A model generated the notes under the pieces. That model saw only the letters and a list, made by a program, of their open reading frames with translations. It had not been told where the DNA came from and did no database searches. The translations under genes and the position numbers were made by a program. Positions 2,035 through 18,814 of a DNA stretch of 20,321 nucleotides are shown piece after piece. The stretch lies in UHGV virus genome UHGV-0122335; one strand, 5' to 3'. Each line of letters begins with the position of its first letter. Position 1 is the stretch's first letter. The stretch is from a virus.

Positions 2035-2639
2035 CAGGACAACCTCGCAATGGTAAACTCGTCAACCGGTGGCTGTGGTTCCTGTGATTCATTCTGGCTA
2101 TGCGAGCCAGCACTAAGAATCACGCGATTGTACATATTGAGGGCAAACGTACCGAGGTCTGCATTCCCAGTCAGCGCCATGTTAATGGCTGCCGCAAGAC
2201 GCCAGGCCAACGCCTCCATAAAAATGGCATCAAACATGTTCACATCTGAAACGCGAGATACATACTTGAGCCATGCCTGCGGCTGGTCTGTGTAGATCAA
2301 CTTTCCTGTTCCGTTGGTGTCTGCACCAACTTCGTACTGAACGCGCATTGCTGCTGTTGGATTGCGTACACCAGGAAGCATAATTTCAGTAATGCGCAGA
2401 CAATCGGACGGGTACTGGTACGCATATTCCCAGTCAGGCGGTGGATTGCTCGTATCTGCAAGCGCCACGCGTTTGGTAGCAAAGTTCCAGTCAAAATCAG
2501 AAAGCACAGCATCACGGCAGGCCTCAAAGTGCAGCGAACATTCCCCCGCTTCCTTGCTGGCTTCCGTCAGGCTGTTAATACTGCGGCTGTTGCCAATATT
2601 GGACAGCGCACGATTGCAGATCTCTACTACAGAGGCCAT
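2034..2639 (-). CDS. Putative virion/tail adaptor protein (201 aa)
   Basis: ORF track 201 aa; ATG at 2639..2637 with AGGAG about 12 nt upstream; sits in the morphogenesis module and is coupled to the downstream large gene. Function inferred from position. Confidence 0.55.
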   Translation of the reverse strand: MASVVEICNRALSNIGNSRSINSLTEASKEAGECSLHFEACRDAVLSDFDWNFATKRVALADTSNPPPDWEYAYQYPSDCLRITEIMLPGVRNPTAAMRVQYEVGADTNGTGKLIYTDQPQAWLKYVSRVSDVNMFDAIFMEALAWRLAAAINMALTGNADLGTFALNMYNRVILSAGSHSQNESQEPQPPVDEFTIARLS

Positions 2640-2661
2640 AAGTTTCTATACTCCTGCAATA

Positions 2662-2679
2662 AAGGGGCCGAAGCCCCTT
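2662..2679 (-). other. Intergenic stem-loop (AAGGGGC-cgaa-GCCCCTT) between two virion genes
   Basis: Perfect 7-bp inverted repeat with 4-nt loop in the 56-bp gap between 2639 and 2696. No strong U-tract follows on the minus strand, so it is more likely an mRNA stability or attenuation hairpin than a full terminator. Confidence 0.3.
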
Positions 2680-2695
2680 GTCTGATTCGCGAGGC

Positions 2696-3031
2696 TTACA
2701 CGCCCAGTTCTTTACGCTTATCTGCGATCTTCTCGCGGAGCGTTTCGGCTTTGGCGTTATGGTGTGGCTTCTCGTTAAAGAGCAATTCGTACTCTTCACG
2801 GAGCTTATCCAGTTCACCATCATCTGACACATCGTTGATGATTTTGGTGCTGGTTGCTGCCATTGACACCTTTCCTGCAACTTTTGCTTTTGCCTGTCTG
2901 GCTGCATCGTTAACAGGTTCCAGTGCGCTACCAGGCTCACCTTCGTATTCGATTTCTGCCCCCTCCGGCCACAGAGTGTTATGGATATGAGAGAGGCGCA
3001 GAACGCGGTATCTTGGTTTCTCACCTGACAT
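2696..3031 (-). CDS. Hypothetical virion-module protein (111 aa from ATG 3031; track gives a GTG start at 3040)
   Basis: ORF track 2696..3040; internal ATG at 3031 is preceded by AAGGTGA; lies between capsid-region genes. Confidence 0.5.
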   Translation of the reverse strand: MSGEKPRYRVLRLSHIHNTLWPEGAEIEYEGEPGSALEPVNDAARQAKAKVAGKVSMAATSTKIINDVSDDGELDKLREEYELLFNEKPHHNAKAETLREKIADKRKELGV

Positions 3032-3041
3032 CAATATCACC

Positions 3042-3479
3042 TTAACCAGTTACTTTTGAGCGGATCGGATACGGCGTATTGGCATCAACATCAAGATTGA
3101 TACCCGCAGTGAATTTGCCAGCCGTTAGTGGGCCAGTTGCGACGGAGTAGTTAACACGCAGATATCGCTGAACACCGGCAGGCACCTTTGCAGAAACAAC
3201 TCGCTTACCTGCTGTCAGGGGGGCCTTTGCCAGTGCGCCACTATCATAAATAGTGGACCATGAGCTGTTATTCTCACTCGTCTGCAACTGGATGTTTACA
3301 GTTGCCTCACCACTTGCCGTGGCGGCTTCGTTAACCAGCACCCAAAACTCAAGCGGGTAACCCACACCGATATCGCGACGGTTTCCGTCAATTGGACCGA
3401 GATCGATTACGTCAGTAGAAGCCGCGGTATCAGTTACCGCCTGTGCTTCGGAGAACATCAACAGTTTGTCGGTGATCAT
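3042..3479 (-). CDS. Hypothetical virion protein (145 aa), possible head decoration or accessory protein
   Basis: ORF track; ATG at 3479 with GGAGA upstream; immediately downstream of the major capsid gene. Product inferred from position. Confidence 0.55.
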   Translation of the reverse strand: MITDKLLMFSEAQAVTDTAASTDVIDLGPIDGNRRDIGVGYPLEFWVLVNEAATASGEATVNIQLQTSENNSSWSTIYDSGALAKAPLTAGKRVVSAKVPAGVQRYLRVNYSVATGPLTAGKFTAGINLDVDANTPYPIRSKVTG

Positions 3480-3494
3480 CTTCTTTCTCCATTA

Positions 3495-3514
3495 GTGGGC
3501 CTGTTGCGGCCCAC
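3495..3514 (-). other. Stem-loop immediately after the major capsid gene (GTGGGCC-tgttgc-GGCCCAC)
   Basis: 7-bp perfect inverted repeat 17 nt downstream of the capsid stop codon; no U-run, so probably a stability hairpin or partial terminator. Confidence 0.3.
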
Positions 3515-3530
3515 AGGTTAATAACAGGCG

Positions 3531-4517
3531 TTACACCACGCGGGCTTCTGTTTCCAGAAGTGCGTCAGTTTCACGAATCGGCACACCACGAAGTGCTGTC
3601 CACCATTCGCCTTCTGTCTCTTTCACGCTGATCGCCAGAGAACTCTTCTCCAGAGATTGCAGGTCAAGCACTTCGTTAATGGTTCTGTTCATGTAGAAAA
3701 CAGGACGTCCCATCCCACGATTTGGGATTCGATGAAGGGCACGAATCATCAGTTTTGCGATATTCGCGGCAGTAGAAGGAGCGTCAAGATTACTGACATC
3801 AATGTTTGCGATACGAACTACATAGCGCCAGTCACGTAATGTCAGCCCGTTGTCCCACTTATAATGGGTACGATAACCTTCGTACTTGCCGCCTTTAGCA
3901 TCTTCCAGTGTCACCTGGCCTTTATCTTCCATCTGAATGCCAGCCTTCTGTCCTTTCGGGAAGATGCCATGCACGGTGTTTTCGCCCCACACCACTAACC
4001 AGATTGAAGTGTTATCTGTACCCGTGCCACCAGCATCAATGATGTTCTGAGCATTACCCGCAGACAGGCTGGAATAGCGGGAGGACAGTCCCATAAACTG
4101 CTGAGGGTTAACGCTGGAATCACCGTAAAACAGTGTCTGCGCCATCGCCTGATTCATCGCTTCAATAAATGCTCGGTCTTCAGACAGACGGAATTCGGCA
4201 GTATTACCGTTCAGATCAGCCAGAGACTTATCGACTTCAGCATAGGTTTCCAGCATGCCAATGGAATCGGTGACCTGCACTGTGGTTGATTTGCTTGGCT
4301 GTACGCCATAGTTCAGCAAACGCCAGGTAGCAGAAGGTAAACCAGAACGAATGGTGGTTCGGTGTCCGGTAGGAAGGTTTCCTTCAACAAAAGGCATATC
4401 CTGAAGAATTGGGTTAGTTTGATTGAGAAGCTCGATAATCTTATCGACTTTCCCATTTGGATCGACGCGCTTACCCCAGTCAGCCAGCGTTAGCGCAGTT
4501 AAGCCTTTAACAGACAT
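3531..4517 (-). CDS. Major capsid protein (328 aa)
   Basis: ORF track; ATG at 4517 with strong GGAGGAGA-type RBS; size and position (after portal and an acidic scaffold-like protein) are typical of a major capsid protein. No sequence match was confirmed. Confidence 0.7.
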   Translation of the reverse strand: MSVKGLTALTLADWGKRVDPNGKVDKIIELLNQTNPILQDMPFVEGNLPTGHRTTIRSGLPSATWRLLNYGVQPSKSTTVQVTDSIGMLETYAEVDKSLADLNGNTAEFRLSEDRAFIEAMNQAMAQTLFYGDSSVNPQQFMGLSSRYSSLSAGNAQNIIDAGGTGTDNTSIWLVVWGENTVHGIFPKGQKAGIQMEDKGQVTLEDAKGGKYEGYRTHYKWDNGLTLRDWRYVVRIANIDVSNLDAPSTAANIAKLMIRALHRIPNRGMGRPVFYMNRTINEVLDLQSLEKSSLAISVKETEGEWWTALRGVPIRETDALLETEARVV

Positions 4518-4531
4518 TGTTATCTCCTCTC

Positions 4532-5227
4532 TTATTTGCCATAGAGCACTTCGGCCGCACTACGCTGGCCTTCATTACCACCGGTGACCATGCCATCTTC
4601 AGACATAGCCTTTCCGATTTTCACGAACGTTTTGACCAGATCAGGGTGATTACCCAGCCCGGTGGTGTTCAGATATTCTTTGAGTTCAGGTGTCCCGAAC
4701 TGGTCAAGCGCACGCTGTGCGGCGCTAAGGTTAGAAATCAACTTGTCGCCACCGATTTCTTTGTCAGCTTTTACATCCGCAGCCCACTGCTCGGTTGTTT
4801 TCTGCCAGGCTTCTGCCTGGCGCTGCTGAACACCTGCCAGAATTTTCGGATAAGCATCAACCAGCTTTTGCGCTTGCTCGTTGGTCAGGTTAAGTTCTCG
4901 CGCCACCGGCTCGAACTCCTTCAACGCTTCTGTATCCAGCTCTACGCCTTCGGCAGCCTGAAACTCGTACTTCTCAGGCGCACCCTCTGGTTTATCGCCG
5001 TCCTTTTTTTCATCCTGCTTATCGTTTTCAGGCTTTTTGTCATCAGCAGGTTTATCGCCATCAGCAACAGGTTGTGGCTTATCACCTTCCTGTTGTGATG
5101 GATCACCAACTGGAGCAGGGTTATCACCTGCAGGCGCTGACGGTTCTGACGCAGCCGGAGCTGCTCCACCATCGACTGGTTGCTCATTGCAAAGACGGCG
5201 ATACAGCAAACGCTCAAATAAATTCAT
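4532..5227 (-). CDS. Scaffolding (capsid assembly) protein, acidic and helical (about 231 aa)
   Basis: ORF track 4532..5233; ATG at 5227 with AGGAG 5 nt upstream; highly acidic D/E/K/P-rich N-terminal half; located between portal and capsid genes. Confidence 0.55.
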   Translation of the reverse strand: MNLFERLLYRRLCNEQPVDGGAAPAASEPSAPAGDNPAPVGDPSQQEGDKPQPVADGDKPADDKKPENDKQDEKKDGDKPEGAPEKYEFQAAEGVELDTEALKEFEPVARELNLTNEQAQKLVDAYPKILAGVQQRQAEAWQKTTEQWAADVKADKEIGGDKLISNLSAAQRALDQFGTPELKEYLNTTGLGNHPDLVKTFVKIGKAMSEDGMVTGGNEGQRSAAEVLYGK

Positions 5228-5229
5228 GA

Positions 5230-5526
5230 TCACTCCTGTTCACTGGCCTCTTTGGCCATCTTCAAATACTGTTCAGGGCAATGCGCCATAACGCGCTGAA
5301 ACAGTTCCAGCGCCAGATTGCGTTGCCCCTCATTAAATGCCATTGCCATAGCGTCCATCGGTGAGATAGCGGAAAACACCCGGCCTTTCTCCAGCACAGA
5401 CCAGACAACGCGACGCCCCTGTTCACTGCTCATGACAAAGCGAATGTCATCAATTTCACGCTGTGCCATGTCACGTTGCTTACGGGCGTTTTCTTCTTTC
5501 AGTTGATCGTCTTCGTAATCTGTCAT
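5230..5526 (-). CDS. Hypothetical protein (98 aa) between portal and scaffold
   Basis: ORF track; its ATG overlaps the portal stop (ATGA), suggesting translational coupling. Confidence 0.55.
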   Translation of the reverse strand: MTDYEDDQLKEENARKQRDMAQREIDDIRFVMSSEQGRRVVWSVLEKGRVFSAISPMDAMAMAFNEGQRNLALELFQRVMAHCPEQYLKMAKEASEQE

Positions 5527-7202
5527 TGTGATTGCCCACCCTGACCACTAACTGCATTCGCCATAGCTGACAAAACACTCGGATCCGAAGTTTTAGCTTC
5601 GCTTAGCGTCTTGGCACCCTGTGCCGCCGCCATCCCCATCGCCATCATTTGTTGCTGCTGTTGTTGCTGTGCCCGTTGCTGGCGAGCCTGCTCAACCTGT
5701 TCCTGCGGAACAATGACGGTTGGAGACACTCCGGACATATCAGCGAATGCATCGATCGCCTGATCAACGTTGAGTTTGTCGAAAGCTTCTGGTTTCGCTT
5801 GCGCAAGTTGACCAATGAAGTTAACCGTGGACGCCAGACTGGACAGGCCGATAGACTTCTGCGCCTGAGCCATGACAGAAATGTATTCGACCTTCAGGGG
5901 CATACCTTCCATCGCGTCAGGCGGTGGCGGCAGCATGTTTTTACGCACCATCATCGAGAAAGCGCGGTCAATGAGAGGATTAAGACATTCGTCGTTCAGA
6001 CGCTCCAGAACCGGCCCCAACATCAGAAGCTTTTCTTCTTTCATTTCGATCACCGCTTCAACAGGCATTGAGCGGGTATTGATGTTCTGCAACATCATGA
6101 ACAGATCGACGAAGTAGGCGCTGTTAATGATTTGACGAGTGTCCTGAATGTCTGCCACCAAATCTGCTGTACTGGGGTTAACCAGATAAGCAGGCCTGAA
6201 GCCATCCTGACCAGTAATCTGATCGATATACGTGATGTCGCCAGGAAGAAGGGAGGCGCGCTGATTCTTGAGGGAAGTCGGAGCAACCATCGGCGGATTG
6301 GTGGCTTTATCAATCAACTGCGACTTGCGCTTCTGGAGAAGCTGCAATGCCTTAACAGGTCCAAGCGCCAGCATACCCGGGCATGATGATCCATAAACAT
6401 CTTCGCCGTTAACTTCCCAGCGCGGAGCCATAATTGGAAACTCATCGAATCCGGACTCGCGCAACAACTTGTCGTTATCGCCACCAACCTCGTAATAAAC
6501 CGATTTGAATGGCTTGTTCTTGCTATCCAGCTTCGATGCATCGCGGTCAATGTTCGGGTAAACCGAATGCATCACTTCAATCCACTTCTCGTAGGTGCCG
6601 CTTTCCCACATGCTTTTTACGGATTCGCTGACGTTATTTAGCCCGAACTCCTGAACAAGCTGACGAACAGTCATAGAGAACTTGCGAAAACAGGTGTCCA
6701 CACTGCCACGAGGTGAGTTAGCCAGGTAGTAACTGCCTATCGGGAATGGCATTGTGCGAATGATGTCCTCGTCATCCTCCAGCACTGCCATTGCACCAGT
6801 GCTGTATGTGCCGAGGCTTCCGTATAACTGCGGCAGAGACTGATAGAGATTCGACTTATTGAACATATCGTTCATGCGGTTCTGCACCGCCTCAAGCCAC
6901 AACTTAACAGGGCCATAATCCATCATTTCAGGATCTGGCGTAGCCAGGCGAAACCACGGACGCGCGGGGCTTGTGATGCCTGACATCATGCCGCTGGCGA
7001 GAGTGCGCGCCGCCATAGTCCCGGTCGAATCAATAATACGTGTATTGCGTCGATCGTTACGGTTGACCTCAGAAGTCAGAAAGCGGGAACCACGCGGGTT
7101 GATGTAATCACTCAACTCGCGCCAGTGCGGCTCGAACGATTGACGCTCGCTTTCAAGTTGTGCGAACTGTTTGTTCAATCGCTCTTTAGTTGTTTCCGCC
7201 AT
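5523..7202 (-). CDS. Portal (head-tail connector) protein, 559 aa, with Q/A-rich C-terminal tail
   Basis: ORF track; ATG at 7202 with GGAG RBS; size and position after terL; C-terminal poly-Q/Ala-rich tail resembles T7-type head-tail connector proteins (recollection, not a search). Confidence 0.7.
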   Translation of the reverse strand: MAETTKERLNKQFAQLESERQSFEPHWRELSDYINPRGSRFLTSEVNRNDRRNTRIIDSTGTMAARTLASGMMSGITSPARPWFRLATPDPEMMDYGPVKLWLEAVQNRMNDMFNKSNLYQSLPQLYGSLGTYSTGAMAVLEDDEDIIRTMPFPIGSYYLANSPRGSVDTCFRKFSMTVRQLVQEFGLNNVSESVKSMWESGTYEKWIEVMHSVYPNIDRDASKLDSKNKPFKSVYYEVGGDNDKLLRESGFDEFPIMAPRWEVNGEDVYGSSCPGMLALGPVKALQLLQKRKSQLIDKATNPPMVAPTSLKNQRASLLPGDITYIDQITGQDGFRPAYLVNPSTADLVADIQDTRQIINSAYFVDLFMMLQNINTRSMPVEAVIEMKEEKLLMLGPVLERLNDECLNPLIDRAFSMMVRKNMLPPPPDAMEGMPLKVEYISVMAQAQKSIGLSSLASTVNFIGQLAQAKPEAFDKLNVDQAIDAFADMSGVSPTVIVPQEQVEQARQQRAQQQQQQQMMAMGMAAAQGAKTLSEAKTSDPSVLSAMANAVSGQGGQSQ

Positions 7203-7216
7203 TTCAATGACTCCGG

Positions 7217-7423
7217 TTACTGACCAAGCAGCGTTTTACCGCTGGTATTAGCGGTTGATGTGTCGCCCTGAGAACCGGTAAGCAGCGTAGAACTACGACC
7301 AGCAGCAGCGCGACGGCGACGAGTTTCTTCGTCGCGGGCATCAACAACGGCGGCATCCTGCTCCTGTGGTGCTGCCTGAACTTCTGGTGTTGCAGGCACT
7401 GATGGTGAGCTACCCATGCACAT
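7217..7423 (-). CDS. Small acidic S/T/A-rich hypothetical protein (68 aa) upstream of portal
   Basis: ORF track; ATG at 7423 preceded by GGAGTCATTGAT; stop lies 15 nt before the portal ATG. Confidence 0.45.
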   Translation of the reverse strand: MCMGSSPSVPATPEVQAAPQEQDAAVVDARDEETRRRRAAAGRSSTLLTGSQGDTSTANTSGKTLLGQ

Positions 7424-7491
7424 ATCAATGACTCCGTACGCAATTAAATTATTACCAATTTAACCACATATGATTTATTTATCGTAGACAG

Positions 7492-7520
7492 TTGACATTT
7501 AATGCACGAATTATTACCTT
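7492..7520 (+). promoter_or_regulatory. Candidate sigma70 promoter (TTGACA at 7492-7497 with a weak -10) upstream of the tRNA island
   Basis: Consensus -35 hexamer TTGACA; the downstream -10 is poor (TATTAC/TACCTT region); overlaps the palindrome at 7514..7528. Confidence 0.3.
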
Positions 7521-7528
7521 TAAGGTAA
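7514..7528. repeat. 15-bp near-palindrome TTACCTTTAAGGTAA (copy 1 of 2)
   Basis: Seen directly; a second copy TTACCTTGAAGGTAA lies at 8138..8152; a further palindrome GGTTACTAACC lies at 7545..7555. Confidence 0.5.
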
Positions 7529-7857
7529 CCAAAGAGTTCATTCCGGTTACTAACCTGACTGGCTTGTCGTTAAATTGAACAGGTGGAGTGAGCTTTTATT
7601 TTGAGCAGTACGGCGTATGGCACATGCGACGATAGCGGTCTGGATACGTTTAAGGGGCACCCTCCCTTGCTCGGGCAAACGAACCAGGTAGCCGGAATGT
7701 GCAAGTCGAGCGGTTTTATTCCGCGCACGGGGATTCACCATCCCGGCGATTCGGTGTGACGCCTCGGAAGAGACGAGGGTACAACGATGAGAGCATTGGA
7801 TATTAGCGGGCTGTTCCACCCTACCTGATATCGAGCCAAACCAGTGCTCTCAGCGTT

Positions 7858-7934
7858 GTGGCATTAGCTCAGTTGGACAGAGCAACCGCCTTCTAAGCGG
7901 TTGGTCGCAGGTTCGAATCCTGCATGCCACGCCA
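7858..7934 (+). tRNA. tRNA-Arg (anticodon UCU, reads AGA), CCA encoded
   Basis: Hand-folded cloverleaf: acceptor GTGGCAT/ATGCCAC, D-stem GCTC/GAGC, anticodon stem ACCGC/GCGGT with loop CTTCTAA, T-arm GCAGG-TTCGAAT-CCTGC, discriminator G plus CCA. Phage-borne tRNA-Arg(UCU) is common in lambdoid and Stx-type phages. Confidence 0.9.
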
Positions 7935-7977
7935 GAATCACGCCTAAGGACCGTGATGCCAGAAGTTCCAGGGGATT

Positions 7978-8019
7978 GGCGGTGACTGTTTCCCTTGAAG
8001 GACTATCACCGCCCTTTTT
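7978..8019 (+). terminator. Putative intrinsic terminator downstream of the tRNA
   Basis: GGCGGTGA...TCACCGCC 8-bp stem (long structured loop) followed by CTTTTTTA. Confidence 0.45.
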
Positions 8020-8097
8020 ACAGCAGGACGCCATTGCGATGACTTCATGCTGTAAACCAGTACAGCCACGGAAGGCATAACTCATTGCTTCCAGTTC

Positions 8098-8121
8098 GCC
8101 CGGTTCGCCGGGCATTTTTTT
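8098..8121 (+). terminator. Intrinsic (rho-independent) terminator
   Basis: GCCCGG-ttcg-CCGGGC hairpin followed by ATTTTTTT. Confidence 0.65.
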
Positions 8122-8137
8122 GCCTGGTGACTGAACG

Positions 8138-8152
8138 TTACCTTGAAGGTAA
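8138..8152. repeat. 15-bp near-palindrome TTACCTTGAAGGTAA (copy 2), 33 nt upstream of the moron ATG
   Basis: Seen directly; overlaps a candidate promoter (GTGACT -35 at about 8127, TAAGAT -10 at 8150-8155). Confidence 0.5.
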
Positions 8153-8184
8153 GATAACAAAAACATTTAACATCTGGTTTAGAC

Positions 8185-8790
8185 ATGTTCGAGCAATTTA
8201 AAGAGATCGCATCATCGGCTATTAGCACAGCGTCAGAGAGAGTCCGCAACCCAGCACTTGGGGCATTTGTGTTTTCGTGGTGTTCTTTTAACTGGAATCC
8301 ACTATTATTTTTATTCTTCAGTAAGTCAGGAATTGAAGAAAAAATAAATTATATATCTTCCCATAGTGATGCGTACCACTCACTCTTATATCCAGCTTTA
8401 TGTGCATTCGCGCTGTGTGTAATAGTTCCATGGTTTAACAATATAGTGGTGATGTTTCAAAAAATTCCACTACAGAACATCGATAACTTCAAACACAACA
8501 AAAGCCTCAGGGATGTTAAAAACGCCATAGAATTGCGTAAGCTTGAGGCACAAAGGGACATTACATACGACAGAGTTAAGGTTGAGTTTGAGTCTGAGAT
8601 TCAATTCTATAAAAATGATTTAATCAAGCACCAAGAGTCTTTGAATTCTTTTTTGCAGGAAAGAGATTCCCTTATTGAAAAAATAATGGCGCTTGAAAAA
8701 GAACTTGCAGAAGAAAAAATAAAATCCAATACCAGAATTGCAAATAAGTTTAACTCAAGGAACAATCGCAACACAGACAATGCTGCTTAA
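8185..8790 (+). CDS. AT-rich moron: predicted membrane protein with two hydrophobic segments and a C-terminal coiled-coil (201 aa); function unknown
   Basis: ORF track; strongly AT-rich relative to flanks; opposite strand to the structural operon; hydrophobic stretches LGAFVFSWCSFNWNPLLFLFF and LLYPALCAFALCVIVPWFNNIVVMF followed by a K/E-rich heptad-like region; no obvious SD sequence. Confidence 0.6.
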   Translation: MFEQFKEIASSAISTASERVRNPALGAFVFSWCSFNWNPLLFLFFSKSGIEEKINYISSHSDAYHSLLYPALCAFALCVIVPWFNNIVVMFQKIPLQNIDNFKHNKSLRDVKNAIELRKLEAQRDITYDRVKVEFESEIQFYKNDLIKHQESLNSFLQERDSLIEKIMALEKELAEEKIKSNTRIANKFNSRNNRNTDNAA

Positions 8791-8794
8791 AACT

Positions 8795-10264
8795 TTATGA
8801 AAACGGATCGTACTCAGTAATAGCTTTCCCCTGCTGCTGCCGTGGGTCATTAGTTTTCTTGGCTACCGGGAAGGCGAACGTTAGCAGCAGCGCATCACCT
8901 TTACCCGGCGAACGCCCAAGTCGCTCTTTGATATCTTCCTTCGGTTCGATAACGATTTTACCGTCCACGCGAACTTTGTACTCTGCCGTCGACAGGTCGT
9001 CTGCTGTTTCCTGGTCATCCAGCATCCCGCCCAGCCTCAGCCATGTCTTGCATGAGTTGAACATCTCCCCACGCTTGTTGAGCATCTGCGGGTCAGTAGA
9101 CGCGCCACCGAACGGAACAAGTTGCCATGTACGACCCCAGCCGTCACCGATTGACTTCAGACCAGTTCCGTAACCGAAGTCGATGAACACTGCGTCAGCC
9201 TGGTACTGGTCTTCAAAGTCAGCGATACGCTTCGCCATTATCAGATCGTCAGTGGTCTTGTTGCCAGTCCACAGCACCTTACTGTGCAGCCCCTGCCGCA
9301 GGTATATCACAGCGTCATCAACTCCGGAGTATGCCGGGTCAACGCCGATTATCACCGGAGCATGTGCAACCTGCGCAGCGGTTACCACCCGTTTCATTGC
9401 CTCATCAGTAAGACCGGTAGGGATAAACTGCAATTCAGATGCATCAGGGAATATGCCGCGCACACGGATTTTAACGAAGTCGCTGTCTTCCCCGTAGTCA
9501 TCAACCCATTTCTGCAACTGCTGTTTGTTAGTACCTTCCACCGTCCGGCTGTCAATCTGCGCAGTTTTCCAGCGGTGTTTGTATTTGCGGAAACATTCGC
9601 GAAAACGCCCGGTATTACGTGTAGGGTTTCCGAACGCCACCCAGATAATCTCAGTGTCTTCGTCCGTAAGCGCACCCTCAGCAACTTCCCACACCAGATC
9701 CGCAATGTTCGACGCTTCATCGAATACCACGATGATGCGTTTGCGCTCGTTGTGTAGTCCGGCGAATGCCTCAGTGTTGTGCTCAGACCAGGGGATTGCG
9801 TCAGCTCGCCACCGCTTGTCGTGCCCAGGATCATTGCTGTACATCGCAGTAGCGGTACAGGTAAACCAGTCTTTCGTGATAGCAAGGTTCGACCACTTGA
9901 TAATTTCCGGCCAGGTCTTCGTTCGTAGCTGGTTGTCGGTGTTGGCGGTCACCACGACCTTACAATCCTCGCAAGTGGACATGCCCCAGTTGATCAGCAT
10001 TGAGATGAATGCGGATTTACCAATACCGTGACCAGAAGCGCGTGCCAGCATAAGCGGCTGATAGCGCGTCTCTGGATTCTGCAGGTGATCACGTATCTCT
10101 CGGAACGCATCAGCCTGCCACTGACGTGGGCCGGTAGCATGTGCCAGTTCAGTCCCCTCTTCCCCCCACGGGAACGCATAGAGGGCATAGCCAAGCGGAT
10201 CGTGAGTGAACCCTGCAATATCCTCGATCAACTGCTCTTCAGGAGATAACGCTGTATCTGTCAC
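8795..10264 (-). CDS. Terminase large subunit (489 aa)
   Basis: ORF track; GTG start at 10264 overlapping the terS stop (GTGA) with AGGATGG upstream; size and position immediately downstream of the small subunit and upstream of portal. Confidence 0.8.
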   Translation of the reverse strand: MTDTALSPEEQLIEDIAGFTHDPLGYALYAFPWGEEGTELAHATGPRQWQADAFREIRDHLQNPETRYQPLMLARASGHGIGKSAFISMLINWGMSTCEDCKVVVTANTDNQLRTKTWPEIIKWSNLAITKDWFTCTATAMYSNDPGHDKRWRADAIPWSEHNTEAFAGLHNERKRIIVVFDEASNIADLVWEVAEGALTDEDTEIIWVAFGNPTRNTGRFRECFRKYKHRWKTAQIDSRTVEGTNKQQLQKWVDDYGEDSDFVKIRVRGIFPDASELQFIPTGLTDEAMKRVVTAAQVAHAPVIIGVDPAYSGVDDAVIYLRQGLHSKVLWTGNKTTDDLIMAKRIADFEDQYQADAVFIDFGYGTGLKSIGDGWGRTWQLVPFGGASTDPQMLNKRGEMFNSCKTWLRLGGMLDDQETADDLSTAEYKVRVDGKIVIEPKEDIKERLGRSPGKGDALLLTFAFPVAKKTNDPRQQQGKAITEYDPFS

Positions 10265-10857
10265 TGATTACCATCCTGACGTTCTTTGAGTCGCTTCCTG
10301 GCTGCCGCTATGCGATCAGCAATTGTCACATTCACATTAACATCCAGGCGTTCTTTGAATGCATTGACGTCGACGTGCTTACCAATCAGTTCGAGGTTCT
10401 TCACCTTGTCAGGCCATTTAATTTTTTTGAGAATTGTCTCTATCGAATCCTCGTTCATGTTCATGATGGTCGATGACAGATCAAAGCCACTAAGCGTAGT
10501 GCGCCAGATTTTCGGCCACTCGCGGATTGGCTTAAGGCTCCCATCGTCATTGAGGATATCAATCACGTCCATCTGGTCGATCTCCACCAGGCGCATGAGA
10601 ACGTAATCGGCACTGACGCGCATTCGTTTGTTGCGCTCCTCCATCAACTCGGCAATCCGTTTTTGAATGCGTTCATCGCGCATCATGACACTGGCTTTAA
10701 CTGCCGCTGTATTTGGGGAGAATCCTGCGTTAATCGCTGCCTGAGTCTGGTTTTCAGGCGTTTTGATGTATGACTGGCAATAAGCCTCCTGCATTGCGGT
10801 TAGTGGCTTAAATTGCGTTGATTTGCGTTTATAGGTTTTAGGTTCAGCAGGCATCAT
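10261..10857 (-). CDS. Terminase small subunit (start uncertain: 10857, 10854 or upstream to 10935)
   Basis: ORF track 10261..10935; ATG-ATG at 10857/10854 preceded by GGTGG; basic helical protein directly upstream of and coupled to terL. Confidence 0.6.
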   Translation of the reverse strand: MMPAEPKTYKRKSTQFKPLTAMQEAYCQSYIKTPENQTQAAINAGFSPNTAAVKASVMMRDERIQKRIAELMEERNKRMRVSADYVLMRLVEIDQMDVIDILNDDGSLKPIREWPKIWRTTLSGFDLSSTIMNMNEDSIETILKKIKWPDKVKNLELIGKHVDVNAFKERLDVNVNVTIADRIAAARKRLKERQDGNQ

Positions 10858-10900
10858 AACCACCATGGTAATTGTTACCGTTGTGGTAATAGTACCATGC

Positions 10901-10926
10901 AAAATAAAGCCGCCATAGTTGGCGGC
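10901..10926 (-). terminator. Intrinsic terminator on the minus strand just upstream of terS
   Basis: GCCGCCA-acta-TGGCGGC hairpin followed by UUUAUUUU in the minus-strand transcript. Confidence 0.5.
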
Positions 10927-11010
10927 AGTATTCAAAACCCATCAAATTCATCATGCATAATCTACTCGTGACATGTCACACTATTAATTTCGTTTCATGC
11001 CAGCCTTTAG

Positions 11011-11322
11011 TCACCCAGCATTGCGAGTCACCATTACACGGGCATGAATTAACGGGAACTCTCTCGCCGCACTTACCGCAAAGTTTCTGCTGATCGATTT
11101 TATACGCCCGCGCACACGTGCATCATCCTGGCGGATCAGCAGCGCGATGTACTCGGCCATTTCATAGGGATCGCGACCAGGGCGCCGGGCGGCGCAGTTC
11201 CGCGCCAGCATTTCCTGCTCCTGCTTATCCAGCACCAGTTCAATTTTGCGCTCACCGGCGGCGGACTGCCGAGCGCGCTGCGCGGCTTTGCGTTCTGCGG
11301 GGGATTTAGCCACGAATCGCAC
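11011..11322 (-). CDS. Hypothetical Arg-rich protein (103 aa by track, GTG start with poor RBS)
   Basis: ORF track only; no convincing RBS; lies in the junction region between the early-left genes and terS. Confidence 0.3.
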   Translation of the reverse strand: MRFVAKSPAERKAAQRARQSAAGERKIELVLDKQEQEMLARNCAARRPGRDPYEMAEYIALLIRQDDARVRGRIKSISRNFAVSAAREFPLIHARVMVTRNAG

Positions 11323-11428
11323 TCCACGCCAGATTGATTAATGACTCCCAGGTAATATAAACCCGGATACCAGCAACCAGGCCGAAACCAATCACCATGG
11401 CATAAAGCAGAGCGTTGCACTTGTTCAT
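11306..11428 (-). CDS. Small hydrophobic protein (40 aa), likely membrane peptide
   Basis: Hand-translated (MNKCNALLYAMVIGFGLVAGIRVYITWESLINLAWSAIRG); GGAGG RBS; its ATG overlaps the stop of the upstream DUF551-like gene (TGATG). Below the ORF-track length cutoff. Confidence 0.4.
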   Translation of the reverse strand: MNKCNALLYAMVIGFGLVAGIRVYITWESLINLAWSAIRG

Positions 11429-12195
11429 CACTTCACCTCCTGCGGCGGTTCTGGTAGCGGCATCCAGTGGGTTACTTTCGATGCCGGTTCTTCCCCATCG
11501 TCAGTAACTGCCCACCATTTGTTTCTCGACCAATCGTAATACCCTTCGAAGGTATCGCACTCAGTCCAGCCGTAAGACTTACCCCAACACCAAACATACT
11601 GTTTATCGTTCGGCATTCGCTCACTACAGCTTATCCAACCATCCGGAGTTGCCGGAGTTGGTCCATCGAATTCGGGCATGTCAGGACCTTTTCTGATAGC
11701 TTTAGCCAGCTCCAGCGGGTCATCGTAAAGCCAGTCGCCAGTTTGTGGGTGATTTGCTTCTGCAAGCTGCGCAGCCCATTCAAGACCATCTTTTTGACCT
11801 TGGAGATAATCAAGCGGCAACTCTTCATGATTACTTGCAGGTTCGGCACTATGAAGCATGGCAGCGCGGCAGGCGTTCCAGCCTCTTACCCCTGCAATAG
11901 CGGCAACCGCATCAACCGCGTACATGCTAAGAGGATTAGGAATTGGTTTTTCTTCCGGTACTACTGGCGCTGGAGGGGTGGCGTAGAGTGGAACTCCTCC
12001 CCCTCCACCAGAAAATTCATTGCGAGCGTTATACTCACGACCATCTGCGTCATCACGCATCCACGCCACCGGCTCTGCTTCCAGCGATGCCAGAGCAATT
12101 TCATAAGCACGGCGCTCAATATTGTCTCGCACGTCCAGGCTGCCGATTCGCTCTTTGATTTCTTTAATCAGTTCTTTGTCGGTAAAAGTGGTCAT
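11428..12195 (-). CDS. DUF551-like prophage protein (255 aa; Trp-rich C-terminal domain)
   Basis: ORF track; ATG at 12195 with AAGGAGAG RBS; C-terminal W-rich region (GWISCSERMPNDKQYVWCWGKSYGW...THWMPLPEPP) resembles the DUF551 domain common in lambdoid prophages (recollection). Confidence 0.6.
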   Translation of the reverse strand: MTTFTDKELIKEIKERIGSLDVRDNIERRAYEIALASLEAEPVAWMRDDADGREYNARNEFSGGGGGVPLYATPPAPVVPEEKPIPNPLSMYAVDAVAAIAGVRGWNACRAAMLHSAEPASNHEELPLDYLQGQKDGLEWAAQLAEANHPQTGDWLYDDPLELAKAIRKGPDMPEFDGPTPATPDGWISCSERMPNDKQYVWCWGKSYGWTECDTFEGYYDWSRNKWWAVTDDGEEPASKVTHWMPLPEPPQEVK

Positions 12196-12196
12196 G

Positions 12197-13015
12197 TCAC
12201 TCTCCTTTGATGCGAATGCCAGCGTCAGACATCATATGCAGATACTCAACTGCATCCTGAACCCATTGACCGCCAATCCCGTAATAGCGATGCGTAATGA
12301 TGTCGATAGTTACTAACGGGTCTTGTTCGATTAACTTCCGCAGAAACTCTTCCAGGTCACCAGTGCAGTGCTTGATGACAGGAGTTTTCCCAGGATGGCG
12401 AACAACAAGAAACTGATTTCCGACTTCACGGACTTCGTTGCTTTTCAGTTCTGCAATGCGCTTCTCTGAGGCTTCCAGCTTCTCTCGCATATCGTCAACG
12501 TACTCGACCAGAGAACCGCCAGCAGGAATTTCGCACTCCTCGACCAGTTGGAAGTAGATATCAGCTGCGGCCCGTGTGTTGCTATGCCTAGCGTCGCCCA
12601 TCTCACCTTCACGAAGAGCATCGCGTTCGGCGGTAAGATTGGCTATTTTGCTGTCTTTGCCTTCCAGCTCAACGCGCAGCTTCCCTACCGTTAGCGCAAT
12701 ATCCTCGTTCTCCTGGTCGCGGCGTTTGATGTATTGCTGGTTTCTTTCCCGTTCATCCAGTAATGCCAAGACGGTAGCCGGATTAGCTGCGGCGATGAAT
12801 TCAGCATTGGCCTGCTGTTCCATTTGGAAATCTTCATCGAAACCGCTTTCTGGATGCGCTCCTTCAATTCTGCAAATAGGAATATATCCAGCAACTTCAC
12901 GATGAATTAGCGCATCATCACCATCAAATCGGCTCTCTCCATATTCGAGCGACCATACACCACACGTTGCTTTTTCTGCCTTGGCACGCAGTGCCTGATA
13001 GTCAATCTTGCTCAC
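12197..13015 (-). CDS. Ead/Ea22-like protein (272 aa)
   Basis: ORF track; GTG start at 13015 with AGGAGG 6 nt upstream; central coiled-coil; typical early-left accessory protein of lambdoid phages (family assignment from recollection). Confidence 0.55.
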   Translation of the reverse strand: MSKIDYQALRAKAEKATCGVWSLEYGESRFDGDDALIHREVAGYIPICRIEGAHPESGFDEDFQMEQQANAEFIAAANPATVLALLDERERNQQYIKRRDQENEDIALTVGKLRVELEGKDSKIANLTAERDALREGEMGDARHSNTRAAADIYFQLVEECEIPAGGSLVEYVDDMREKLEASEKRIAELKSNEVREVGNQFLVVRHPGKTPVIKHCTGDLEEFLRKLIEQDPLVTIDIITHRYYGIGGQWVQDAVEYLHMMSDAGIRIKGE

Positions 13016-14946: not shown

Positions 14947-15118
14947 TCAGAATGGACACGGCCCAAGGAAATAACGCTGATTTAATACTTCGACTCGGGA
15001 CAAATTAAGGCATACCCGCATTCCTTCGCGGTCACCATTATGGCGATACCAGAGAGCTTTCTGCGTGTACATGCGTCTCTGTAACTTGCTCTCCTTCACT
15101 GTGGTTGCAAGTGACATG
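14947..15118 (-). CDS. Small hypothetical protein (56 aa)
   Basis: Hand-translated; GGAG RBS 6 nt upstream of the ATG; overlaps the next small ORF by 80 nt in another frame, so uncertain. Confidence 0.3.
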
Positions 15119-15196
15119 AATATCTCCTTCGTTACCGATTAATTCTTTCATCTGACGAATGAATTCTTCGTCTGACCAGTTATCTGTAAAACTCAT
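15039..15196 (-). CDS. Small acidic hypothetical protein (52 aa)
   Basis: Hand-translated; AGGAA RBS; its ATG overlaps the stop of the kil-like ORF (ATGA). Confidence 0.4.
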
Positions 15197-15345
15197 TTCC
15201 TGCGATACCACGGAAGGTTGATAGCTGATTTCATCGCTTTATTTGCTTCAAGCCACATTTTTGAATCACCAATAAATCTGGCTATTACTGCTTTGTTCTG
15301 TGCAGCACGAAGCATCTGGTGATTGATGGCTATTTCATTGCGCAT
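15193..15345 (-). CDS. kil: Kil-like small protein (50 aa)
   Basis: Hand-translated (MRNEIAINHQMLRAAQNKAVIARFIGDSKMWLEANKAMKSAINLPWYRRK); GAGGT RBS; lies immediately after cIII as in lambda. Similarity to lambda Kil is from memory and unverified. Confidence 0.45.
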   Translation of the reverse strand: MRNEIAINHQMLRAAQNKAVIARFIGDSKMWLEANKAMKSAINLPWYRRK

Positions 15346-15485: not shown

Positions 15486-16454
15486 TTAGTAGGTTATTTT
15501 TGTTGCGAATACTTCGCCTTTTACGATGGCTGTTATGATATTTTTAGCAACATCTTCTGATGCGCCAACCTTGATAAGGTCAGCAAGTATTTTGTTATTT
15601 ACTTCTTTCCGGTGATCTTTATCCTTTGCTCTACGCTCTTCTTCGTCCTTGATTCTTTTTTCTTCTGCTATTCTGGCTTGCTCTTTTGCTTCAGCATCGC
15701 GACGGATTTGTTCAGCCTCCTCCTGTGCTTTTCTGCGTTCTGCTTCAATTGCTGCCTGCTTTTCTCTTTCAGCTCGTTCTGCTGCCTCTTTTGCTTCGCG
15801 CTGTGCTCGTTGCTCGGCTTCAATGCGTTCACGCTCTGCACGTTCTGCTGCGGCCTTAGCTTCTGCTTCTCGCCTTGCTGCTGCTTCAATTTCGGCTTTT
15901 GCCTTTGCTTCGGCTTCTGCTCTGGCTTTCTCTTCAGCTTCTCTTTTTAATCGTTCTTCATGCTCTCGCTTTTCCTGCTCCGCTTTGAGTCTTGCCTCTT
16001 CTCTTTGGCGGTCAAATTCGCGATCCATCAAAATCGCTATTTCATGGTCAGACTCAATTTGCTTTGCGAGAGCTTCAGCTGCTGCCTTAGCTTCTTCTTC
16101 GGCTTTAATCCGTGCCTGTTCCTCCTCATAATCAGTAAGAGGCTGGCGTGCCTTGGCTTTCAGCTCATCAAGTCGATCACGCACTGTCTTGCGGTTGGCA
16201 TCAATTAGCTTTGGAATTCCCTTCAGTTCAGCAACAAGGTCTTTGCCAAGACCATCGAGATATGTTTTCGTCTGCGCAACTTTATACGCCAGAGAAGCGA
16301 TCTCCTTTCTGCCCTTTGCCGTTGTGATATCAGGCACAAAGGACATAACTTCACGTTCAACCTTTTGGAGAATTTCTTCAATCTGGTCGGCAGACTGAAA
16401 TACAGTCATTGCATTTGCTTTTTCAATAACAACTAAATCTGTTACTTCACTCAT
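15486..16454 (-). CDS. Highly charged coiled-coil protein with E/A/K/R-rich repeats (322 aa from ATG 16454)
   Basis: ORF track 15486..16550; the in-frame ATG at 16454 carries a strong GGAGGATAT RBS; a roughly 120-residue central stretch of EAxAKA/ERxxRE-type repeats (low-complexity DNA); N- and C-terminal regions appear globular. Confidence 0.65.
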   Translation of the reverse strand: MSEVTDLVVIEKANAMTVFQSADQIEEILQKVEREVMSFVPDITTAKGRKEIASLAYKVAQTKTYLDGLGKDLVAELKGIPKLIDANRKTVRDRLDELKAKARQPLTDYEEEQARIKAEEEAKAAAEALAKQIESDHEIAILMDREFDRQREEARLKAEQEKREHEERLKREAEEKARAEAEAKAKAEIEAAARREAEAKAAAERAERERIEAEQRAQREAKEAAERAEREKQAAIEAERRKAQEEAEQIRRDAEAKEQARIAEEKRIKDEEERRAKDKDHRKEVNNKILADLIKVGASEDVAKNIITAIVKGEVFATKITY

Positions 16455-16466
16455 ATATCCTCCATC

Positions 16467-16496
16467 AAAAAAAATTGCCCTCACACTGGAGGGCAA
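16467..16496 (-). terminator. Intrinsic terminator on the minus strand upstream of the coiled-coil gene
   Basis: TTGCCCTC-cagtgt-GAGGGCAA hairpin followed by U8 in the minus-strand transcript. Confidence 0.6.
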
Positions 16497-16588
16497 AGAA
16501 GATTTCCAATAATCAGAACAAGTCGGCTCCTGTTTAGTTACGAGCGACATTGCTCACATAGCAGACTCGTAAATCTGCTATAGGCGCT

Positions 16589-17015: not shown

Positions 17016-17054
17016 GTTAGCCTCTGTTGTTTATGCCAAAAATAAAGGCCACCA

Positions 17055-17306
17055 TCAGGCAGCCTTTTTGTAAATGTTGCAGGTATCAAGTAAGTAATTA
17101 GATGGAGCGCCATAAATTATGAATTCATCGTTTGTCGGGTCCATCTCCATCTCTTGGCCTATTGCCATTCTTGCGTCAGTGTCATCAGAGGCGAAGCATA
17201 AAACAGCCCACGCACCCATTGTTTTAAAAAGAACTGCAATTGGCTGTGGTTTTACTGAATTTGCGTTAGTGCGAAAATCATAAATCGCACTTTCATGAAA
17301 TTCCAT
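17055..17306 (-). CDS. Hypothetical protein (83 aa)
   Basis: ORF track; ATG at 17306 with GAGGTGAG RBS; first gene after N. Confidence 0.55.
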   Translation of the reverse strand: MEFHESAIYDFRTNANSVKPQPIAVLFKTMGAWAVLCFASDDTDARMAIGQEMEMDPTNDEFIIYGAPSNYLLDTCNIYKKAA

Positions 17307-18010: not shown

Positions 18011-18039
18011 AAAAGAAAACCCGACGCTAAGGTCGGGTT
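18011..18039 (-). terminator. Intrinsic terminator downstream of cI
   Basis: AACCCGAC-cttagc-GTCGGGTT hairpin followed by UUUUCUUUU on the minus strand, 31 nt after the cI stop. Confidence 0.55.
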
Positions 18040-18069: not shown

Positions 18070-18729
18070 TTAACTAAATGTCTCTTCAGGCCACTGGCTG
18101 GCGATAACTTTCCCTACTACGGAACAGCTATCATTGCATGGAATCATTGGATATTGCGGGTTTAGTGGCTGTAGGAACACCTGACCGCTATCCCTGATCA
18201 GTTTCTTGAAGGTAAACTCGTCACCACCAAGTCTGGCTATGCAGAAATCACCTGGCTCAACAGCCTGCTCAGGGTCAACGAGAATTAACATCCCGTCAGG
18301 AAAGCTTGGCTTGGATCCTGTTGGTGCGGTCATTGAGTTACCTTCAACCTCAAGCCAGAATGCAGAGTCACTGGCTTTTTTGGTTGTGCTGACCCATCTC
18401 TCCGCATCACCTTTGGTAAAGGTTCTAAGCTCAGGCGAGAACATCCCGGCCTGAACATGAGAAAAAACAGGGTACTCATATTGTTTTTTAACGGGGGAAG
18501 ATGAGTATTCGCCAACAGGTGAAAATGTACCGTCGTGGTTGAATGAGACGTTATCAATACCAAGGTATTTAAACACCACACCAATCTCGTCAAGAGATGG
18601 ATGACGAGATCCGCGCAACCAGTGACCAATTCCACCCTGCGTCATACCAAGCTCTTCAGCCAACTTCTCTTGAGTTATGCCGAGCTCTTTCATTCTGGAT
18701 CTAGCCAGTTCATACCATTTCATTTTCAT
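18070..18729 (-). CDS. cI: CI repressor: lambda-like C-terminal dimerisation/autocleavage domain fused to a non-lambda HTH DNA-binding domain
   Basis: C-terminal about 130 aa ([22 protein letters not shown]...[14 protein letters not shown]) are essentially lambda cI; N-terminal about 85 aa differ from lambda. Start taken at MKMKW (18729); the track's upstream extension is probably not translated. Confidence 0.85.
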
Positions 18730-18785
18730 GTCCTTATTATTACGCTCTGTACTAAAACCATCCATGCACAAGATGTATTTTTTGT

Positions 18786-18814
18786 TTGCATTCCAAAAGT
18801 ACATATCGTATTAT
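18786..18814 (+). promoter_or_regulatory. pR promoter (TTGCAT, 17-nt spacer, TATTAT)
   Basis: Near-consensus hexamers with 17-nt spacer about 27 nt upstream of the cro ATG. Confidence 0.55.
18798..18812. promoter_or_regulatory. Candidate oR operator AGTAC-N5-GTATT
   Basis: 9/10 match to the oL palindrome; lies in the pR spacer and -10; a weaker third site ATTAC-N5-GTACT lies at 18739..18753. Confidence 0.4.

Follow-up and report, generated by a model that had tools for sequence, protein, structure and literature searches.

The virus genome UHGV-0122335 (20,321 nucleotides; the whole of this stretch is referred to as the window) encodes on its minus strand a 322-residue protein that belongs to a large family found beside phage recombination genes. 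The recombination link of the family is a conserved synteny, which extends over many bacterial groups and three families of annealing protein, and is not mere adjacency in this one phage. The protein appears to be built from a conserved N-terminal domain, a long charged helix of variable length and a small conserved C-terminal domain. We put at about even the chance that it is an antitermination-dependent accessory adaptor of the annealing-type recombination modules of phages.

Synteny with recombination genes

Loci carrying the gene were collected from GTDB contigs at one genome per species (80 loci) and supplemented with more divergent IMG/VR loci; a first scan of IMG/VR had returned mostly near-identical E. 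coli loci. The GTDB loci span Enterobacterales, Pseudomonas, Aeromonas, Comamonas, Achromobacter, alpha-proteobacteria and assorted metagenome-assembled genomes (MAGs). Open reading frames (ORFs) on the same strand were clustered, and the label of each cluster rests on one Pfam-checked representative. Neighbourhoods were counted for the 103 loci with at least 2.5 kb of downstream sequence, the flank being taken as -3 to +4 kb.

A recombination gene is located in the flank at 97 of these 103 diverse loci. Annealing proteins are encoded in the flank at 86 loci (61 ERF, 21 RecT and 4 Sak4-like AAA_24), and at 59 a recombination gene is the nearest or next-nearest gene downstream or the nearest one upstream. 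The recurrent neighbours are YqaJ (40 loci), SSB (43 loci), a DUF3799 nuclease (8 loci) and RdgC. The homologue in a P. aeruginosa prophage is followed immediately by ERF and the YqaJ exonuclease. The Enterobacter order is KilR - X - GamL - RecT - YqaJ, where X is the homologue, and at three loci (L135, L138 and L158) the order ERF - X - YqaJ - SSB is observed, with X embedded between erf and the exonuclease. Relatives with 56-77% identity to the window protein are found paired with genes for Erf, RecT or a Sak4-like protein. Pairing with all three annealing classes argues for a role common to the modules and makes it unlikely that the partner is one particular annealing protein. At five loci from Achromobacter, Bordetella and Pseudomonas (L108, L123, L130, L143 and L160) the family gene is followed directly by YqaJ, and at some of them also by SSB, with no recognisable annealing protein in the flank. 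Either these loci have an unrecognised annealing protein nearby or the family protein needs none there.

Databases already list the gene, which is uncharacterised and widely misnamed without support. Its homologues include Sf6 gene 33 (annotated "similar to phage D3 Orf53"), mEp234_033 and IME10 Orf53, and it falls in PHROG 1376. Megablast located it at 95-99% identity in 35 phage records; carriers include CUS-3, IME10, Sf101, mEp234, mEp213, mEp043, HK544, Sf6 and some Stx1a phages. It is also present in 530 of 5,426 complete E. coli genomes (about 10%). When the N-terminal 118 residues were searched alone, 4,926 clusters at 50% identity were retrieved at E <= 1e-3, 3,392 of them with E <= 1e-10, and most of the matching proteins are 250-430 aa long. 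A 99%-identical copy on a 3.9-kb contig labelled 'MAG: Actinomycetes bacterium' (L088, JAFADF010000066.1) is almost certainly a binning contaminant.

A sequence-only reading of the window had called the function of the protein unknown, and the searches revealed no clear homology to a characterised family. Pfam contains no family matching anywhere in the 322-aa protein at E <= 1. Sequence searches of NCBIfam, PADLOC and the PDB, whether started from the protein or from family profiles, gave only matches to the low-complexity helix. An AlphaFold2 (AF2) model compared by Foldseek with BFVD returned only unnamed members of the same family. Three PHROGs families cover the protein, all of 'unknown function'. 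A literature search covering Sf6 gene 33, TolA-named prophage genes, DUF1351 and accessory proteins of single-strand annealing proteins found no characterisation of the gene.

Protein architecture and the relation to DUF1351

The N-terminal domain (residues 1-118) defines the family. It is nearly invariant among enterobacterial copies and carries the motif PDxSTxKGR..IAS.AYKVA.SKT.LD..GK.LV..K..PK.ID..RK..RD.LD....R.PLT.(W/Y)E. Among 50-74 diverse members the invariant or near-invariant residues are T45, R49, K63, G70, K71, K78, D85, R88, R92, R103 and P105, mainly Lys/Arg, Asp, Gly and Pro. Homologues of roughly 355 aa, from Pseudomonas and other genera, contain an extra structured middle domain of which the E. 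coli type retains only a remnant (ESDHEIAILMDREFDR). The C-terminal domain has a consensus of roughly 45 aa, H(R/K)..IN..AL.AL...G..E..AK..I.LIA.G.IP.V.I.Y, and its profile matched the UBA of LATS2 (E = 0.0087), RuvA domain III (E = 0.19) and the UBA of HUWE1 (E = 0.76), all marginally. The segment ..AL.AL...G..E..AK..I resembles the signature of UBA and RuvA domain III; unlike these folds, the AF2 model has two C-terminal helices and not three, followed by the conserved IP.V.I.Y tail.

The sequence-only reading had described the centre of the protein as roughly 120 residues of near-perfect heptad-like repeats, forming a coiled coil and encoded by low-complexity DNA. An E/A/K/R-rich centre flanked by conserved termini is indeed present, though it extends over about residues 108-283 and is interrupted at 133-147. 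The DNA is compositionally simple, as that reading held, but it contains no good repeats: Tandem Repeats Finder reports weak arrays only (63-90% matches, scores 31-48) and the dispersed direct repeats in the gene are 66-76% identical. True tandem DNA repeats were therefore rejected. Nor does the coiled coil stand. Only 8 of the 134 residues from 150 to 283 are large and hydrophobic (6%), and their 3.5-residue periodicity is no better than chance, the same power being reached by 521-712 of 1000 shuffles; on these two counts a heptad coiled coil was rejected.

Residues 150-283 consist of 26% Ala, 24% Glu and 27% Lys+Arg, and the charges almost balance (42 E+D and 40 K+R in 134), leaving the region nearly net-neutral. 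Opposite charges at i/i+3 and i/i+4 are strongly enriched, with a salt-bridge score of 52 where shuffles average 1.0 +/- 9.7 (z = 5.3). AF2 predicts the 322-aa protein to be all-helical, with helices at 46-153 and 158-295 and a mean predicted local distance difference test score (pLDDT) of 80.8, rising to 94 in the charged helix. The predicted template modelling score (pTM) is only 0.32, and the overall shape of the protein is therefore undefined. High E/K/R content, low hydrophobicity, i/i+3,4 pairing and a predicted continuous helix (158-295) are the marks of ER/K single alpha-helix (SAH) domains, and all of them are found here. Such domains occur in myosin VI, myosin X and caldesmon. The central region is best described as a predicted ER/K-type single alpha-helix or TolA-domain-II-like helix; it differs from the classical ER/K motifs in its higher alanine content. 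The ER/K SAH is a structural motif and not a homologous family. Close homologues measure 245, 275, 290, 300, 306, 309, 322 and 333 aa as a result of in-frame indels. Such variation is in keeping with a spacer that need not be of one exact length.

A partial parallel is offered by KfrA-type plasmid proteins, which combine a small N-terminal domain with a long Ala- and charge-rich helix and are encoded by a mobile element (PMC7783346). The 322-aa family has no match to Pfam KfrA_N, however, and KfrA acts in plasmid partition and not beside recombinases.

The closer comparison is with DUF1351 (PF07083). According to PMC8093625, the DUF1351 genes of Firmicute phages precede erf, sak4 and recT. The place upstream of erf-ssb and sak4 is taken in turn by DUF1351, Mu Gam-like, DUF2483 or gp157-like genes, for which the same paper suggests analogous functions. 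One member of the 322-aa family (P0274) bears the UniRef name 'DUF1351 domain-containing protein', and has no PF07083 match. Our comparison set consisted of a protein of Enterococcus phage LG62, with PF07083 present in its homologues, and of seven diverse IMG/VR proteins. As a positive control, 7/7 of the Firmicute-type IMG/VR proteins match PF07083 (E = 1e-26 to 1e-50). The same model matched 0/74 diverse members of the 322-aa family even at E <= 1, and by this measure the family lies outside PF07083 as now defined.

DUF1351 proteins have an N-domain, a middle domain, in many members a variable ER/K helix, and a small C-domain. Their size (270-360 aa) and the order of N-domain, ER/K helix and small C-domain are shared with the 322-aa family. 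The N-terminal part is predicted to be all-helical in both, and the spacing of the early helices is alike, with a helix at 20-36, a loop and a long helix from 44 in DUF1351, and a helix at 22-38, a loop and a long helix from 46 in the 322-aa protein. As in the 322-aa family, the DUF1351 gene sits immediately upstream of a single-strand annealing protein gene. ERF is directly downstream at 7 of 9 DUF1351 loci, six of these ERFs being about 50% identical to proteobacterial ERFs and one (L234) 27%; SSB is recognised downstream at three. The two families differ in the C-domain, which in DUF1351 is beta-alpha-beta-like ('FYKVVATPEELE..GI.Y.RR') and in the 322-aa family a helical UBA-like module ending in I-x-Y. 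DUF1351 also keeps the middle domain, most of which has been lost from the E. coli-type protein. Alignment of the family profile (A4) with DUF1351 by hhalign gave a probability of 2.4% with a narrow DUF1351 alignment and of 20.7% and 18.9% as that alignment was broadened. The E value was about 1e-3 for a co-linear alignment of 35-80 columns with K.ID..RK.V+...P..(W/F)E at its centre. When the AF2 model of DUF1351 (pLDDT 77.8) was searched against BFVD, the family member A0A516M6H6 appeared at rank 12 with E = 1.5 and a probability of 0.28. We judge homology of the 322-aa family to DUF1351 to be, on balance, the likelier case, though it is unproven.

Proposed role and competing explanations

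In the role that we propose, the gene would be transcribed from pL as a delayed-early gene, by analogy with lambda only when N permits read-through of the tL2-type terminator 20 nt upstream. Its product would be a soluble, elongated, all-helical accessory protein of the single-strand annealing module. The head would be the N-domain of about 118 aa, with its invariant Lys/Arg-rich positions, probably a distant relative of DUF1351. The middle would be an ER/K single alpha-helix of variable length, serving as a stiff spacer and not as a dimerising coiled coil; at about 130 residues here, it would thus span roughly 20 nm if fully helical. The tail would be a small conserved helical module similar to UBA or RuvA domain III, both of them folds for protein-protein interaction. 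As a tether or adaptor, the protein may bind at one end a component common to all modules (DNA, SSB or a host factor) and at the other a second partner, and would thereby assist annealing-protein-dependent recombination or recombination-dependent replication. A bolder form of this proposal, which we hold to be unlikely, unites the 322-aa family and Firmicute DUF1351 in one ancient superfamily that would form a fifth core component of annealing modules. Its members would be ER/K-spaced tethers with a DUF1351-like head on DNA or SSB and a UBA/RuvA-domain-III-like tail recruiting a host motor or replisome factor.

Several observations weigh against the adaptor role, which is drawn from gene neighbourhood. 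In the window phage and other E. coli phages, cIII, kil and two small ORFs separate the 322-aa gene from erf; early-left operons hold many unrelated accessory genes, and the adjacency could in part reflect position. Only four functions, those of SSB, nuclease, annealing protein and anti-RecBCD, are recognised in a 2025 survey of 325 lambdoid Rec modules (PMC12315714). Frameshifted alleles, such as that of CUS-3, are found in viable phages, and the full-length protein is therefore dispensable under some conditions at least. To these are added the absence of PF07083 matches, the low hhalign probabilities and the weak BFVD match of the head, together with the marginal match and missing third helix of the tail.

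Phage annealing-protein modules are drivers of phage mosaic evolution and the basis of recombineering tools. Since the accepted parts list comprises four functions (PMC12315714), a conserved fifth companion would be new, if real. The present family is large, with about 4,900 clusters and a presence in about 10% of the complete genomes of E. coli. It is not covered by a Pfam model, and it accompanies Erf, RecT and Sak4-like modules in Proteobacteria and more widely; through DUF1351 it may reach Gram-positive phages. It is thus a concrete, testable candidate for the missing accessory factor. If the superfamily proposal is true, co-expression might improve Erf-, RecT- or Sak4-based recombineering. 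If the function is unrelated to recombination, the gene is an ordinary conserved hypothetical phage gene. At the minimum, the widespread TolA annotation needs correction and the family merits a model of its own.

Two other functions compete with this proposal. One, which we think distinctly unlikely, is that of a functional analogue of Gam, protecting the ends of linear phage DNA or inhibiting a host nuclease (RecBCD, SbcCD or another) from the gam/Mu-gam-like slot upstream of the annealing protein. Lambda Gam is likewise all-helical. The family gene lies upstream of the annealing protein in most loci, and Gam-like genes and DUF1351 alternate at the same position, with analogous functions suggested (PMC8093625). 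Dedicated anti-RecBCD genes nevertheless co-occur with the family (Abc2 in the window, GamL immediately downstream in Enterobacter), no similarity to any Gam was found in Pfam, NCBIfam or the PDB, and the near-neutral charge of the helix (K+R 40, D+E 42) means that it is no DNA mimic. The other, unlikely too, is a host-takeover or anti-defence function unrelated to recombination, for example as a decoy or inhibitor of an immune or SMC-like system, with the proximity explained by shared placement in early operons. The slot is mosaic and 'moron-like', bounded by a conserved segment that also precedes the unrelated ea10, its immediate neighbours are host-directed (cIII, kil, ral-like), and a central region that varies rapidly in length would be consistent with an arms race. 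Set against this are the persistence of the synteny outside the lambdoid operon architecture and in distant taxa, the copies embedded between erf and the exonuclease, and an N-domain that is highly conserved and not diversifying. PADLOC gave only a weak match to the coiled-coil part of LmuB (E = 0.034, 10.4 bits), which falls on the low-complexity charged helix and has no significance; no significant defence match was found.

The database names and the suggestion of a decaying frame fare worse. PGAP/NCBI mostly names the protein 'cell envelope biogenesis protein TolA', and HF4s names it 'antitoxin protein'; we give an envelope or antitoxin role next to no credence. The long Ala/Glu/Lys-rich charged helix does resemble TolA domain II, and is the source of the TolA name. 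No transmembrane segment or hydrophobic N-terminus is present, however (the maximum 19-residue Kyte-Doolittle mean is 1.03, at residue 293), and the full-length TolA model TIGR02794 (tolA_full) reaches 11.4 bits where its cutoff is 59.45 (E = 0.14), with a match confined to the low-complexity region. The name is therefore unsupported and derives from composition alone. TolA was rejected on these grounds and for want of domain III, Pfam giving no match; moreover TolA is a gene of the tol-pal cluster, whereas the 322-aa gene stands in a phage early operon. The antitoxin label was also rejected; neither a toxin partner nor an antitoxin domain was found. It is highly improbable, if a shade less so, that the gene is a decaying or non-functional ORF kept open simply by low-complexity DNA. 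Split alleles and spurious ORFs on the opposite strand could be read in that sense. Of the 78 IMG/VR loci that include the N-terminus, 5 are truncated or frameshifted. In CUS-3 (L169, locus 1501-2470) one extra T at codon 113 (window about 16116-16118), at the boundary of N-domain and helix, splits the gene into ORFs of 116 and 214 aa. Two ORFs are annotated in place of the gene in phiv205-1, Louie and Huey. Such alleles explain PHROGs 17211 and 21365, which are artefacts. On the other side, an intact 322-codon ORF is found at 61 of the 78 loci (about 78%), all indels among aligned intact homologues are in frame, the ribosome-binding site (RBS) is strong, and thousands of diverged homologues keep the N- and C-domains with their invariant residues. 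Frameshifts in homologues, named in the sequence-only reading as the sign of a pseudogene, do occur but in a minority of copies; the 322-aa gene is clearly under selection overall, though split alleles survive in some phages.

The early-left operon and its terminator

The coordinates are collected in Table 1. The order in the pL operon, read along the minus strand, is N-like gene, three small ORFs, terminator, 322-aa gene, cIII, kil, two overlapping small ORFs, erf, ssb and abc2. A mechanically called ORF is longer (15486..16550, 354 aa, ATG at 16550). The start of the 322-aa gene was placed at 16454 because the 32-codon extension crosses the terminator and every homologue starts at MSEVTDL. 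With an intact frame, a GGAGGA 3 nt before the ATG, and recombination genes found downstream of cIII and kil, the window bears out the sequence-only account of a real gene of unknown function, with its own strong RBS, in the early-left operon and adjoining the recombination module.

Table 1 Features of the window in and around the 322-aa gene
Feature	Position	Strand	Remarks
322-aa coding sequence	15486..16454	minus	322 codons + stop (stop codon 15486-15488)
Shine-Dalgarno GGAGGA	16463-16458	minus	3 nt 5' of ATG at 16454-16452; read from sequence
Intrinsic-terminator-like element	16467..16496	minus	stem 16496-16475 (UUGCCCUC/GAGGGCAA) + U8 at 16474-16467
Conserved N-terminal domain, aa 1-118	16101..16454	minus	family-defining
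Link segment, aa 119-149	16008..16100	minus	E/A-rich, then short conserved remnant (ESDHEIAILMDREFDR)
Predicted ER/K-type charged helix, aa 150-283	15606..16007	minus	composition, periodicity, AF2; in-frame indels among homologues fall here
Conserved small C-terminal domain, aa 284-322	15489..15605	minus	alignment, profile
N-like antitermination protein, 110 aa	17315..17647	minus	upstream, same operon
cIII homologue, 43 aa	15330..15461	minus	contains ESLLERITRKLRDGWKR; next gene downstream of 322-aa gene
kil homologue, 50 aa	15193..15345	minus	
Erf-family single-strand annealing protein, 235 aa	14231..14938	minus	
Phage SSB, 168 aa	13724..14230	minus	
Abc2 anti-RecBCD protein, 98 aa	13414..13710	minus	

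The terminator hairpin, identified in a consensus scan 20 nt upstream of the gene, consists of an 8-bp stem (5 of the pairs G-C) and a loop of 6 nt, and T8 comes directly after it. Folding of the local RNA yields -18.1 kcal/mol (z = -2.6). The same hairpin is annotated as tL2A ("homology to lambda") in Sf6 and as 'terminator' in mEp234 (rho-independent), HK97 and HK620. Stem, loop, T8, fold and the Sf6 annotation all agree with the strong hairpin-plus-U8 terminator inside the pL operon that had been noticed just upstream of the gene from the sequence. By its hairpin, its U tract and its location in the pL operon the element is a predicted lambda tL2-type Rho-independent terminator. Since the 322-aa gene sits behind such a terminator, N-dependent expression is a reasonable inference by analogy with lambda.

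The 76-nt segment that contains the terminator and RBS (16455-16530) occurs in 325 phage records, against 37 for the 322-aa gene. In phages of lambda type and Stx type it stands before ea10, which is unrelated (for example in VT2-Sakai, a lambda-type phage). The terminator is thus not peculiar to the 322-aa gene and is part of a conserved mosaic boundary segment. Several genes can therefore fill the slot tL2 - [X] - cIII - kil - recombination genes, and the 322-aa gene is one of them. Lambda Ea10 shares this slot, with the same terminator and RBS segment on its 5' side and cIII, kil and recombination genes on its 3' side; it differs in length (122 aa against 322 aa). Similarity between the two proteins was rejected, the best BLASTP match having E = 1.4 over 8 residues. 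The Sf6 annotation 'boundary sequence bsq4' overlaps the terminator and RBS segment. In the fold of a read-through transcript (16458-16503, minus strand), AUCUUCU on the 5' side of the hairpin pairs with the Shine-Dalgarno sequence GGAGGAU across the hairpin and U tract. This pairing could mask the RBS, according to a single minimum free energy prediction (-18.1 kcal/mol, z = -2.6).

Window positions 1-13000 hold structural genes (terminase, portal/connector, capsid, tail) that are 96-99.9% identical to those of phiV10/epsilon15-like podophages and share the strand of the lambdoid early-left operon. The window thus combines, as a mosaic, a Uetakevirus-like virion module with an early region that is lambdoid/P22-like. 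The gap between kil and erf is occupied by two small ORFs of 56 and 57 aa (14947-15117 and 15038-15211, minus strand), which overlap by 80 nt in different frames. Both belong to PHROG families labelled 'recombinase'; they correspond to Sf6 genes 29 and 30 and are homologues of HK97 gp42 and gp42.1. Opposite the 322-aa gene, ORFs of 57-160 aa are open on the plus strand between 15612 and 16398 (e.g. 15649-16131, 160 aa); these are by-products of codon-phased low-complexity DNA and not genes. A further terminator-like hairpin with a 10-bp stem (17044-17067, minus strand) overlaps the 3' end of an 83-aa ORF downstream of N, in a tL1-like position. A bidirectional terminator-like hairpin (18018-18039, both strands) lies just downstream of a 244-aa ORF (18070-18804), which we take to be the repressor gene.

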